Shown here: positions 12,724 through 61,897 of the stretch, piece after piece
Position numbering within the stretch: the first letter of the stretch is position 1
Layout of the letters: each line of letters starts with the position of its first letter
Source: Candidatus Nanohalarchaeota archaeon
Lineage (GTDB): Archaea; Nanohalarchaeota; Nanosalinia; Nanosalinales; JAFCCC01
Assembly: GCA_017610385.1 (NCBI GenBank)
Contig: JAFCCC010000001.1
Location: forward strand, 1 to 64,000
Length of the DNA: 64,000 nt
Direction: 5' to 3'
Program-made: the position numbers and the translations under genes
Notes under the pieces: generated by a model
The model's database searches: none
What the model was told of the DNA's origin: nothing
The model's input: the letters and a program-made list of their open reading frames with translations, nothing else

Positions 12724-12758
12724 AGCTATCTTTTCTAAAATTTCATATATAAAATAAT

Positions 12759-13018
12759 GGGAATGCCAGAAAATGGACTTCTTTGAAAATCAGGTTAATC
12801 CATATCTTTTCTCTCCTCCGCGACCCCACAAACATTCAAAATACAGTTTATGGCTGCTCCCGTCAAGGTCTGACCCATTCGCTGCAAGTTAAATCCTGCA
12901 GGACGGAGAATCAACGTCCAGATATGGGCCATCTCCTCGAAGTAGCCTCTTCTCTGACTTCGACTCCGCTATAGAGGGTTTGCGGTAACAAGTTTCCCCT
13001 AAAAACCCAGTCTATCCC
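12759..13018 (-). ncRNA. ffs: archaeal SRP (7S) RNA
   Basis: helix 8 GGUCAGACCU-UGAC-GGGAGCAGCC; helix 6 CUGCAGG/CUUGCAG; paired ends GGGA/UCCC; TATA upstream. Confidence 0.88.
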
Positions 13019-13195
13019 AATGTAAAAATTCATCAGCATTTATATAACCTTTATGCCTGATTTTAGAAACAAATTTAAATCTGAATACAAAGTTATAGAA
13101 TAGGACAATGAAAAGTGATTGCCTTTGTCGGTGCCATTAACGGTCAAATTCTTTTATCAAGTTTAAAAACTAAAAAATCAATTAATTTAAAAAAT

Positions 13196-13670: not shown

Positions 13671-15071
13671 ATGAAAAAAATTTCAGTAGTTTTGTTTAAC
13701 ACCCTCTCACGAGAGAAAGAAGTTTTCAAACCAATTAAAGAGAAAACGGTGGGTCTTTACTCGTGTGGGCCAACCGTCTATCTTCATGCACATATAGGAA
13801 ATATGCGAGCGTATCTTTTTGTGGATTTCCTTCGCAGAACTTTAGAATACAATGGATTTAAAGTGAAACACGTAATGAACATTACAGATGTAGGACACTT
13901 ATTTGGAGACGAAGATGATGGCAAAGACAAAATGGAAGAAAGCGCTAAAAGAGAGAAAAAGAATATTTGGGATGTTGCAAAACATTATACAGATCTTTTT
14001 CTTAAGGACATTGATTCTTTGAATATATTAAGAGCAAATATACTGCCCCGAGCAACAGATCACATAAAAGATCAGATTGAATTGATTAAAACTTTAGAGA
14101 AGAAAGGTTACACTTACAGAATTTCTGATGGGATTTATTTTGATACCTCAAAATTAAAAGAATATGGTAAATTAGCGCGTTTGAATTTGAAAGGACTAAA
14201 GGAAGGTGCTAGAGTTAAAAAAAATATTGAAAAGAAAAATCCAACAGATTTTGCGCTTTGGAAATTCTCTCCAAAAGATAAGAAAAGGCAAATGGAATGG
14301 GATTCTCCATGGGGAATTGGTTTTCCTGGCTGGCACATAGAGTGTTCTACAATGTCTACAAAATACCTGGGGCAACCATTTGACATTCACACAGGAGGAA
14401 TTGACCACATTCCTGTTCATCACGTAAACGAAATTGCGCAAAGCGAAGCAGCATATGATAAACCATTAGCAAATTTTTGGATGCATAATGCATTTTTAAA
14501 CTTAAAAAATGGTAAAATGAGCAAATCAGAAGGTAAAATTTTAGTTTTGGATGATTTAATAAAAATGGGTTTCAGTGCATTAGACTTTAGATATTTAGTT
14601 TTAACGTCTCATTATCGTTCAGAGTTGAAATTTTCTAAAGAATCAATGATTGCTGCGCATAATACGTTTAATAGATTGAAAGAATATGTAATAGAACTTA
14701 AAAAAACTGCAAAAAATAAAATAAACAATGAAAATATTGAAAAATTCAAAGAGATGTTCTTAAAAGCAATTAATACTGATCTAAATACACCCGAAGCCTT
14801 AAGCGTTCTTTGGAAGGTTATTCGTTCGAATTTGAACACAGAAGAAAAATTAATTTTGATTGAAGATTTTGATCAGGTGTTAGGTTTGGGTTTGAAAGAT
14901 CTTAAAAACGAGTCAAAAATACCAAAAGAAATAGAAAAAGTAGTAAAAAAACGAGAAATTGCTCGCAAAGGAAAAAAATGGGCGGAAGCAGACAAACTAA
15001 GAAATTTAATTCTAGAAAAAGGATTTATTGTAGAAGACAGAAAAAGTGGACCAATGATAAAAAAGGCTTAA
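13671..15071 (+). CDS. cysS: cysteine--tRNA ligase
   Basis: CGPTVY, HIGN, GFPGWHIECS, KMSKS. Confidence 0.98.
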   Translation: MKKISVVLFNTLSREKEVFKPIKEKTVGLYSCGPTVYLHAHIGNMRAYLFVDFLRRTLEYNGFKVKHVMNITDVGHLFGDEDDGKDKMEESAKREKKNIWDVAKHYTDLFLKDIDSLNILRANILPRATDHIKDQIELIKTLEKKGYTYRISDGIYFDTSKLKEYGKLARLNLKGLKEGARVKKNIEKKNPTDFALWKFSPKDKKRQMEWDSPWGIGFPGWHIECSTMSTKYLGQPFDIHTGGIDHIPVHHVNEIAQSEAAYDKPLANFWMHNAFLNLKNGKMSKSEGKILVLDDLIKMGFSALDFRYLVLTSHYRSELKFSKESMIAAHNTFNRLKEYVIELKKTAKNKINNENIEKFKEMFLKAINTDLNTPEALSVLWKVIRSNLNTEEKLILIEDFDQVLGLGLKDLKNESKIPKEIEKVVKKREIARKGKKWAEADKLRNLILEKGFIVEDRKSGPMIKKA

Positions 15072-39589: not shown

Positions 39590-39675
39590 GCCTTGGTAGC
39601 TTAGCTGGTAGAGCGCGTGGCTGTTAAAATTTTGCAGTAACCACGAGGTCGCAGGTTCAAGTCCTGCCCAAGGCG
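39590..39675 (+). tRNA. tRNA-Asn(GUU) with 13-nt intron 39627-39639 (37/38)
   Basis: cloverleaf; BHB CTGT/GCAG with TA|A bulges. Confidence 0.95.
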
Positions 39676-45255: not shown

Positions 45256-45370
45256 ACTCTTAAGTAAGTTACGATTTTATTACCAAATATAAATCTTTAC
45301 ATTCACAGTTTGCATAAGTAGTAGATAAGCTTTTCAAATAAAAGCGAATAAACTGACGGGCATTTTAGCT

Positions 45371-45508
45371 GCCACAGTGGCTCAATTGGCAGAGCAGCTG
45401 CTTCGTATTGTAATGAGGAGGACACTTATTCCGATAAAATATGAGGACGTGAACACCCCCCGAACAAGAATCAGCAGCAGGTTGTGGGTTCAACTCCCAT
45501 CTGTGGCT
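45371..45508 (+). tRNA. tRNA-Thr(CGU) with 65-nt intron 45408-45472 (37/38)
   Basis: acceptor GCCACAG/CTGTGGC; GCTGC-TTCGTA|A-GCAGC; U73; BHB with one mismatch. Confidence 0.93.
45413..45463 (+). ncRNA. box C/D sRNA inside the tRNA-Thr intron
   Basis: ATGAGGA-11nt-CCGA-6nt-ATGAGGA-12nt-CCGA. Confidence 0.8.
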
Positions 45509-47607: not shown

Positions 47608-47721
47608 GCGGGGGTAGCCAAGTGGTCAACGGCGATAGGCTCAAGTACTGAATTTGAGATCTGATTTAATGAAGAAACCTATTCCCATAGGGGTTCGTCG
47701 GTTCGAATCCGGCCTCCCGCA
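47608..47721 (+). tRNA. tRNA-Leu(CAA) with 31-nt intron 47646-47676 (37/38)
   Basis: acceptor GCGGGGG/CTCCCGC; long variable arm; ATAGG-CTCAAG|A-CCTAT. Confidence 0.93.
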
Positions 47722-61351: not shown

Positions 61352-61897
61352 ATGTCAATTACAGGGACGCTCGCACAAAATAAAGTTAGAGTTACAAAAG
61401 AAATAGATCAGATTCACTCAGAAAAATATTATGGAAAAATAATTTCTGATTCTGGAAAAGATGTATTAGAATTATCTCTAACAGAAACGATGCATCTAGT
61501 CAATAAAGGAGAATTAACATTAAAGGACGGTAGAAAAAAATTAAATAATGAAGTAGTTTACGAGCGATTCTGCGAAATCGATGCAGAATTTCCACAGAAA
61601 TACACAGTTTATGCGGATTTGCGGGAACGAGGATATATTGTAAAAAGTGGTTTCAAATTTGGTACACACTTTAGAGTTTATTCCAGAGGAGTAAACCCTT
61701 ACAAAGAAGGCCAAAAAGAACAAAAAGAACATACTAAATGGGTTGTACATGCAGTTCCTGAAAATTATACATTATCTTATCAAGAAATGTCAAGATCTGT
61801 CCGTTTGGCTCAAAACATTAGAACTAAAATGCTTTGGGCGGTTGTAGATTCGGAAAATGAAGTCACGTACTATGAGATATATCGTTTAAGACCATAG
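61352..61897 (+). CDS. endA: tRNA-intron (BHB) splicing endonuclease, catalytic subunit
   Basis: VYADLRERGY, GFKFG.HFRVY, EH, VRLAQNIRTK. Confidence 0.95.
   Translation: MSITGTLAQNKVRVTKEIDQIHSEKYYGKIISDSGKDVLELSLTETMHLVNKGELTLKDGRKKLNNEVVYERFCEIDAEFPQKYTVYADLRERGYIVKSGFKFGTHFRVYSRGVNPYKEGQKEQKEHTKWVVHAVPENYTLSYQEMSRSVRLAQNIRTKMLWAVVDSENEVTYYEIYRLRP

Follow-up and report, generated by a model that had tools for sequence, protein, structure and literature searches.

A box C/D small RNA in the tRNA-Thr(CGU) intron of a Nanohalarchaeota archaeon: a probable trans-acting guide for the A loop of 23S rRNA

Box C/D small RNAs (sRNAs) have been described in the intron of tRNA-Trp, with guides directed to the same tRNA that hosts them (Clouet d'Orval 2001, cited in PMC7994747 and PMC4090602). 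In Nanoarchaeum equitans, the intron of elongator tRNA-Met is described as a stable RNA of 66 nucleotides (nt) with C/D-like features and a T-to-G change in box C (Randau 2012, PMC3491384). With regard to the ribosome, helices 90-93 are named in a review as hotspots of archaeal guide-directed methylation (PMC7994747). The 2'-O-methylated U2552 (Um2552) of E. coli is reported to be made by the protein RrmJ, a homologue of which is mentioned for Haloferax volcanii, while the equivalent nucleotide of yeast cytoplasmic 25S rRNA, Um2921, is guided by snR52 (PMC2584109). The element considered here is the intron of a tRNA-Thr(CGU) gene in a 64,000-nt stretch of DNA from a Candidatus Nanohalarchaeota archaeon; this whole stretch is referred to as the window, and coordinates given without a contig label are those of the window. 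The genome is labelled G000 and belongs to family f1 of the collection used. The intron has the anatomy of a complete box C/D sRNA, one of its two guides has a single exact site in the rRNAs of the same genome, in helix 92 of the 23S rRNA, and homologous sRNAs with the same guide are found across the phylum. These data suggest, with a probability of about 0.8, that the intron is a functional trans-acting guide for methylation of the A loop, released from tRNA-Thr(CGU).

The locus shares features with each of the described systems, and differs from each of them. Like the guide in the H. volcanii tRNA-Trp intron, it is a C/D sRNA in an intron, probably of the bulge-helix-bulge (BHB) type, at the canonical site, with predicted release by the splicing endonuclease and predicted partnership with L7Ae, Nop5 and fibrillarin as described for that system; however, the host here is tRNA-Thr(CGU), the guides have no match in the host tRNA, the target is 23S helix 92 and the U.U pair of the box motifs is replaced by G-C. 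The tRNA-Met intron of N. equitans resembles it in its source, a DPANN archaeon of reduced genome size, in being a tRNA intron of about 65 nt with C/D features, and in the T-to-G change of box C. Its host tRNA differs, however, and the present case has a unique rRNA target together with phylum-wide homologues. snR52 acts on the same A-loop nucleotide through an RNA-guided fibrillarin ribonucleoprotein (RNP) and not through an RlmE-type enzyme, but it is a eukaryotic small nucleolar RNA (snoRNA) that does not reside in a tRNA intron; the likeness is functional and no homology is claimed. RlmE (RrmJ, FtsJ) yields the same product in the same helix as a stand-alone protein, and no recognisable orthologue was found in any of the 70 genomes searched, which are all those of the order and also all those of the phylum in the collection. 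Finally, the free-standing sRNAs of families f4 and f3 described below are homologous to the intron sRNA, yet are independent genes, and those of f4 have canonical boxes and usually a paralogue directed to G2553.

Um2552 in the A loop is among the most conserved rRNA modifications. In bacteria, and in the haloarchaea treated in PMC2584109, it depends on the protein RlmE, and in the yeast cytoplasm on a snoRNA. Within the main texts of open-access papers and bioRxiv preprints, neither an sRNA in a tRNA-Thr intron nor a tRNA-intron sRNA aimed at rRNA was found, although the target tables of published surveys may already list archaeal guides for U2552. What appears to be new is the host tRNA, the rRNA target in trans, the occurrence of U4-type boxes in both motifs, and an A-loop sRNA family that spans the phylum in a lineage without a recognisable RlmE. 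The phylum appears to provide a natural case in which, among very small genomes, an RNA-guided route fully replaces a protein route. A tRNA intron would here work in trans on the ribosome, in parallel with eukaryotic intron-encoded snoRNAs, and such a role would give a selective reason for the retention of a tRNA intron.

Anatomy of the intron and its predicted 23S rRNA target

The source genome is small (788 kb in 18 contigs, ~32% G+C), and the archaeal Rfam models for large-subunit (LSU) rRNA, small-subunit (SSU) rRNA and signal recognition particle (SRP) RNA all match it. ARAGORN missed the tRNA-Thr(CGU) gene, the identification of which rests on the Rfam tRNA model and on a hand parse. The exons make up a regular cloverleaf, with an acceptor stem GCCACAG/CUGUGGC, an anticodon stem GCUGC/GCAGC and a discriminator U. 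An insert of 65 nt separates A37 from A38, and the intron therefore spans 45408-45472. A sequence-only reading of the window, made before this analysis, had given the same coordinates, which the hand parse reproduced within the Rfam match, and had placed C, D', C' and D boxes and two guides in the intron, every one of which was found at its position (Table 1).

Table 1. Features of the tRNA-Thr(CGU) locus, and the splicing endonuclease gene, in window coordinates
Feature	Position	Strand	Basis
tRNA-Thr(CGU) pre-tRNA, 138 nt	45371..45508	+	Rfam RF00005, 52.6 bits, full model 1-71; cloverleaf in minimum-free-energy fold
5' exon, tRNA positions 1-37; anticodon CGT at 45404-45406, A37 at 45407	45371..45407	+	hand parse; identical layout in 4 relatives
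Central BHB helix, 5' strand U32 U33 C34 G35; pairs with 45467-45470 (AGAA)	45402..45405	+	comparison with relatives
Intron, 65 nt, canonical 37/38 site, equal to the box C/D sRNA	45408..45472	+	hand parse; sRNA model R1 match 45409-45467, E 4.4e-10
Bulge nucleotide U	45408	+	sequence
Stem strand UGU, pairs with ACA 45464-45466; this 3-bp helix serves as outer BHB helix and at the same time as C-stem of the terminal kink-turn	45409..45411	+	fold, comparison with relatives
Bulge nucleotide A (L1)	45412	+	sequence
Box C, AUGAGGA (canonical RUGAUGA, U5 to G)	45413..45419	+	aligned to AUGAUGA of free-standing homologues (alignment A1)
D' guide, 11 nt, DNA GGACACTTATT, RNA GGACACUUAUU	45420..45430	+	sequence
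Box D', CCGA	45431..45434	+	sequence, alignment A1
D'-C' loop, TAAAAT/UAAAAU, 6 nt, shortest in the sRNA family	45435..45440	+	sequence, alignment A1
Box C', AUGAGGA	45441..45447	+	sequence, alignment A1
D guide, 12 nt, DNA CGTGAACACCCC, RNA CGUGAACACCCC	45448..45459	+	sequence
Box D, CCGA (canonical CUGA, U2 to C)	45460..45463	+	sequence, alignment A1
Intron 3' end: ACA stem 45464-45466, AGAA central helix 45467-45470, UC bulge 45471-45472 (with A38)	45464..45472	+	sequence
3' exon, A38 (45473) to discriminator U73	45473..45508	+	hand parse
tRNA-splicing endonuclease catalytic domain, in a 184-residue open frame	61589..61870	+	Pfam PF01974, 97.7 bits

The terminal C/D motif has the geometry of a kink-turn (k-turn), in that a single nucleotide separates the UGU/ACA stem of 3 base pairs (bp) from the R of box C, which leaves a 3-nt bulge (A, A, U). 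The positions of the sheared G.A/A.G pairs are retained in both boxes (G3 and A4 of box C, G3 and A4 of box D), and the guide spacers measure 11 nt (D') and 12 nt (D). The proposal that U.U is replaced by G-C in two k-turns was correct as to the replacement, which is present in both motifs (G at position 5 of C and C', C at position 2 of D and D'), but not as to the second k-turn, the internal C'/D' motif being a k-loop. A strict two-unit pattern of boxes (canonical or G/C-variant boxes with spacers of 10-13 nt) occurs once in the 788-kb genome, at the intron, and is absent from all 30 locally shuffled genomes.

The match between the D guide and the 23S rRNA is exact and unique. When both strands of the genome are searched, the 11-nt complement of the guide, GGGGTGTTCAC, occurs twice, once as the guide itself on the opposite strand and once in the 23S rRNA (G000:C6:2854-2864, inside the LSU rRNA match at C6:248-3192), where it lies in the context GGGUGGGGG-UGUUC-ACCCAUUAAAG. 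Guide positions 45449-45459 pair with GGGGUGUUCAC at this site over 11 nt, and the complementarity reaches 12 nt when the first C of box D is included. Chance matches to any rRNA are rare, having been seen for 29 of 20,000 shuffled 11-mers and for 18 of 20,000 random genomic 11-mers. The 23S site is taken to be helix 92, the A loop, which in E. coli has the loop U2552 G2553 U2554 U2555 C2556, with the first U of UGUUC presumably equivalent to U2552. A45455, which lies five nucleotides upstream of box D (N+5), pairs with this first U. Both the helix 92 target and the register on the first U of UGUUC had been anticipated by the sequence-only reading, and both are borne out in the rRNA of the organism itself, with the U2552 identity assumed from the known A-loop sequence.

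The paired stretch is strongly conserved. GGGUGUUCAC is present in 29/29 helix-92 sequences recovered from the phylum, all of which have the form GGGUG(G/A)GGGUGUUCACC(C/U)AUUAAA, with G in 20 and A in 9; family f5 is not represented among them, a 23S rRNA being assembled in 0/8 of its genomes. It was also observed that helix 92 of the phylum reads GGGGG-UGUUC-ACCC(A) (G000:C6:2845-2875 and 28 relatives), with G.A as the closing pair of the A loop; the closing pair in E. coli is C-G.

The predicted pathway comprises splicing, accumulation of the intron, assembly of an RNP and the methylation itself. The pre-tRNA would be transcribed and then cut by the splicing endonuclease at a BHB, the outer 3-bp helix of which is also the C-stem of the k-turn. 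The intron of 65 nt would be freed and probably circularised by RtcB, as both circular archaeal tRNA introns and this ligase are described in the review literature (PMC7994747). L7Ae would subsequently bind the C/D k-turn and the C'/D' k-loop, each with G-C at the position termed 3b.3n, followed by assembly of Nop5 and fibrillarin. The D guide would then pair with 11 nt of helix 92 in the nascent 23S rRNA, leading to methylation by fibrillarin of the 2'-OH of the U2552 equivalent. All proteins in this pathway are encoded by the genome, namely fibrillarin (266.5 bits), Nop5 (121.5 bits), L7Ae (99.8 bits), RtcB (C9:33031-34329, 531.6 bits) and the endonuclease of Table 1. As the outer BHB helix and the C-stem are one and the same, there may be coupling, or else competition, between splicing and RNP assembly.

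The A-loop sRNA family across the phylum

Homologues of the intron sRNA are widespread in the phylum. BLAST searches with the tRNA-Thr gene recovered the C'-guide-D half in five other genomes and an intron-less tRNA-Thr in G001. The exact pattern TGANGACGTGAACACC was found in 12/70 genomes, with 0 matches of the reversed control, while the short pattern GGTGTTCAC proved too unspecific as a probe for the family. A sequence-only model, R1, was built from alignment A1 of 11 copies and gave 70 matches in 53/70 genomes at E <= 0.01, including 25/28 high-quality genomes; in G000 it matched the intron alone. These matches correspond to 69 sRNA loci, one locus of G007 having been matched in two pieces, and 69/69 have an A-loop guide of the AACACC type. 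At gathering score, no Rfam C/D family matched in the window or in the loci of seven relatives, and Rfam 15 does not seem to include the A-loop sRNA family.

In alignment A1 the homologues share the D-guide core GAACACC, the N+5 register, the order of the boxes and the lengths of the spacers. The D guide and the boxes are conserved, whereas the D' guide, the loop and the base composition have diverged, and the D'-C' loops of the relatives are 13-30 nt long and often form a small hairpin. The genomic setting of the sRNA varies. In family f4 it is free-standing with canonical boxes (AUGAUGA/CUGA), so that the intron sRNA has homologues among canonical sRNAs. In family f3 it is also free-standing, with a terminal stem of 5 bp and AUGAGGA/CCGA boxes in G014 and G008 and with AUGAAGA/UUUA boxes in genus g3. 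The tRNA-Thr(CGU) intron is the setting in family f5, with AUGAGGA/CCGA in G010, AUGCGGA/CCAA in G004 and G022, and GAUGAGGA/CUGA in the 198-nt intron of G007, as it is in G000 (f1; 65 nt, AUGAGGA/CCGA). Rfam scans of three free-standing loci (G014, G039, G015) revealed no overlapping tRNA. Two particulars of these copies may be added. The genomes of f4 usually have two free-standing paralogues (for example L194-L208 and L214-L231), in which a guide ending in GAACACCCA before CUGA is directed to U2552 and a guide ending in GAACACCU before CUGA to G2553. The G007 intron (L036:542-812) has a large insertion between D' and C', which includes a second stretch resembling a D' guide, CUCUUUGAGU.

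The intron-borne copies are built alike. In G010, G004, G022 and G007, as in G000, one bulge nucleotide and a 3-nt stem strand precede the C to D portion, which is followed by a 3-nt stem strand, a 4-nt central strand and two bulge nucleotides. In these four f5 relatives the central BHB helix, CUCG/CGAG, has 4 Watson-Crick pairs and forms a perfect BHB. In G000 the same helix is UUCG/AGAA, with three pairs and a G35.A mismatch at one end, and the bulges UA/U and UC/A are present (exon-intron borders at the slashes). The first pair of this helix is compensatory (U32-A in G000, C32-G in the f5 copies), and the 3-bp stem of the relatives (CGC/GCG, CGU/GCG or CGU/ACG) is compensatory at two of three pairs relative to UGU/ACA.

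That f1 and f5 have the same intron architecture speaks for a single origin of the intron-borne state. In a quick fibrillarin tree, f3, f4 and f5 each formed one clade and were grouped together with a support of 91 (Shimodaira-Hasegawa-like approximate likelihood ratio test, SH-aLRT), while G000 fell outside them without resolution from other DPANN archaea; this tree cannot decide between capture of the sRNA by the intron and its release from the intron. A more extensive reading, regarded as tentative, is that the C/D machinery is kept throughout the phylum for one or two A-loop guides (U2552 and G2553), and that in G000 it is down to one sRNA, of which one guide works, locked in a tRNA intron. 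Guide and tRNA would then share a transcript, and both the intron and the RNP would be indispensable. Being common to the deepest family (f1) and to f5, the intron-borne state might be ancestral, with the free-standing genes born subsequently from the tRNA intron.

Other explanations for the intron sRNA

Several observations weigh against a function of the intron as an A-loop guide. Its boxes are not canonical for archaeal sRNAs and it has no Rfam C/D match at gathering score, while its D' half is without a target. The D guide offers no guide-target covariation to count, as helix 92 does not vary over the paired stretch in any of the 29 sequences from the phylum. As the copies used to build model R1 were themselves A-loop sRNAs, the model favours sRNAs of this kind; it therefore demonstrates that the family is widespread, but not that other C/D sRNAs are absent. 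The central BHB helix of G000 has a G.A mismatch where the relatives have G-C, because of which the splicing efficiency of this copy is only assumed. Finally, G000 encodes a 169-residue FtsJ-like methyltransferase, to which some small chance of being a very divergent RlmE has to be granted.

The register of the guides bears on whether methylation is the purpose of the pairing at all. N+5 falls on U2552 in 46 genomes and is shifted by one nucleotide to G2553 in 27, with both positions covered in 20 (73 guide units in 53 genomes). Moreover, in five sRNAs (G032, G033, G044, G058 and G034) the two positions are served by one molecule, the D' guide being directed to G2553 and the D guide to U2552. 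It has been considered that the intron RNP binds helix 92 mainly as a folding chaperone or as an assembly checkpoint for the peptidyl-transferase region, with a methyl group that is absent or unimportant. The duplex is indeed long for the family (11-12 bp here, versus 7-10 bp in several f4 copies, guides read by eye), and a chaperone role of archaeal C/D sRNAs is discussed in literature cited by the review PMC7994747. Nevertheless, the exact N+5 register, together with the paralogue shifted by one nucleotide, points to selection on the placement of the methyl group, and not on pairing alone, and fibrillarin is kept in 67/70 genomes of the phylum. A chaperone role in place of methylation is thus judged to be unlikely.

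A similar question concerns the enzyme. Redundancy of a guide is known from yeast, with snR52 and Spb1, and it is conceivable that U2552 in this lineage is methylated by a very divergent protein that makes the sRNA dispensable. The candidate is the 169-residue class I methyltransferase mentioned above (G000:C3:9371-9736, minus strand; L014:1375-1884), which gives the only FtsJ Pfam match of G000 above cut-off (31.9 bits, cut-off 24.1, profile positions 9-123) and also matches the rrmJ equivalog with an E of 6e-6 over its N-terminal 60 residues. However, the C-terminal third of the FtsJ profile remains uncovered, the rrmJ equivalog score is 25.8 bits against a cut-off of 300, PDB matches are equally good to fibrillarin and to N-methyltransferases, and the neighbours in the ESM Atlas are generic class I methyltransferases, none of them FtsJ. 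Methylation of U2552 by this protein is therefore considered quite unlikely. Two other weak FtsJ matches were rejected, one being an NPPY-motif methyltransferase and the other an open reading frame (ORF) of 391 residues read by eye as NOL1/NOP2/Sun-type. An absence of RlmE/FtsJ, which the sequence-only reading had raised as a point to be checked, is supported by these searches: G000 has no recognisable orthologue, the best scores with the rrmJ equivalog TIGR00438 (24.3-25.8 bits) lying far below the cut-off, and among all 70 genomes no FtsJ Pfam match exceeded 37.8 bits, the best one being partial. As the lineage is without a recognisable RlmE, the proposed guide RNP is likely to be the sole source of the methyl group on the U2552 equivalent.

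The variant boxes raise the further question of whether the RNP is still assembled. Across the family, the 3b.3n pair of the terminal k-turn may be U.U, G-C, G.U or A-U, and both boxes change together, which supports the earlier description of the boxes as covarying; in G000 itself the G-C substitution is paired in both motifs. Beyond this pair, the AUGCGGA/CCAA boxes of G004 and G022 (L033, L034) have C.A in place of the second sheared A.G pair, and the AUGAAGA/UUUA boxes of f3 genus g3 (L210-L213) have A.U, A-U and G.U at positions 2 to 4. The 3b.3n position of U4 small nuclear RNA (snRNA) k-turns is reported to be strongly biased to G-C or G-U, and a G-C variant of Kt-7 to be unfolded in Mg2+ alone and to fold upon binding of L7Ae (PMC4382518). 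In the 5' stem-loop of U4 snRNA, as described there, the tandem G.A/A.G pairs are likewise succeeded by G-C at 3b.3n; this k-turn is unfolded in Mg2+ alone and is bound by a protein of the L7Ae family. It differs in RNA and in function, and the likeness is limited to the protein-binding motif. By analogy with these two cases, and because of them, the intron boxes are regarded as giving a U4-type k-turn, which is a known, protein-dependent kind and not a defect. The free-standing and intron-borne copies, with canonical and variant k-turns, constitute a natural series for the study of C/D gene mobility and of the tolerance of L7Ae for k-turn variation.

These features are relevant to the view that the intron is a decaying relic, a captured sRNA that has ceased to form an RNP and whose guide just happens to have escaped drift so far. 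Such a relic would be expected to show boxes that are not canonical, a D' guide left as an orphan, an internal loop that is the shortest of the family and a mismatch in the BHB helix, as are seen here. On the other hand, the tandem G.A/A.G pairs are intact in both box pairs and the box changes are compensatory (G-C) and not random. In addition, the D guide of G000 matches helix 92 better than that of any other member of the sRNA family, despite the drift of the genome to 32% G+C, and all of the C/D proteins have been retained in a genome of 788 kb. Decay is accordingly held to be very unlikely.

Guide-target scans covered the rRNAs, the SRP RNA and the 31 tRNA matches of the genome, including the host tRNA-Thr, with reporting thresholds of 9/12 (D) and 8.5/11 (D'). 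Action in cis on the pre-tRNA, as by the tRNA-Trp intron of Haloferax and other Euryarchaeota, is the known precedent for tRNA-intron C/D sRNAs (PMC7994747, PMC4090602), but is barely credible here, since both guides fall below threshold on the host tRNA-Thr and the D guide has its highest-scoring tRNA match (9/12, three mismatches) in a different tRNA. The sequence-only reading had likewise noted that neither guide matches the host tRNA and had proposed action in trans; such action on rRNA is supported by the unique 23S target, by the lack of a host-tRNA match and by the phylum homologues with the same guide.

The D' guide, further candidates and other features of the window

For the D' guide, nothing comparable to the 23S match of the D guide was found in the rRNAs, the SRP RNA or the 31 tRNA matches of this genome. 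Its best rRNA and tRNA scores were 8.5-9.5 of 11-12, with two or more mismatches, and the D' guides of the relatives have no site in the rRNAs of G000. The complement AATAAGTGTCC has one exact site outside the intron, antisense to the ORF at 13671-15071; this site was rejected, as about 0.5 such sites are expected by chance from base composition. The D' half had been left without a target in the sequence-only reading, in agreement with these results, and the D' guide of the G000 copy is probably an orphan. Most f4 copies have a D' guide with a conserved core, GACAUCG(U/A), which is missing from the G000 copy. Compared with the partial 23S rRNAs of the same genomes (L051-L053, L071), this f4 core gave a best match of only 7 bp, CGAUGUC, in the peptidyl-transferase region, where N+5 would presumably fall on U2504 (E. 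coli numbering).

Strict and relaxed box scans of the genome, from which degenerate boxes would escape, returned the intron and one A/T-rich candidate with two box mismatches (C13:59229-59280, minus strand). Half units consisting of box, guide and box occurred at chance frequency (7, versus 6.8 in shuffles). Units with 10-nt complementarity to stable RNAs numbered 8, versus 8 against reversed targets, after removal of two units antisense within the rDNA itself. A unit at C13:16745 (minus strand) was rejected as a C/D sRNA because its second half is absent. The intron may thus be the only C/D sRNA of this genome. A repertoire of one or two guides, if true, would be the smallest C/D system known to us, and would provide a minimal system in which to test a single ribose methylation.

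The tRNA genes of this small genome are rich in introns, as 16 of the 31 Rfam tRNA matches exceed 90 nt, and no C/D boxes were seen by eye in the other tRNA inserts. ARAGORN assigned wrong labels to several other intron-bearing tRNAs of the genome. The window contains further tRNA loci at 39590-39675 and 47608-47721. Upstream of the tRNA-Thr gene, an A/T-rich stretch, TTTCAAATAAAA, at 45332-45343 (28-39 nt before the start of the tRNA) may, as judged by eye, be the TATA box of the gene. The archaeal SRP RNA is also located in the window, at 12755-13022 on the minus strand (110.2 bits).

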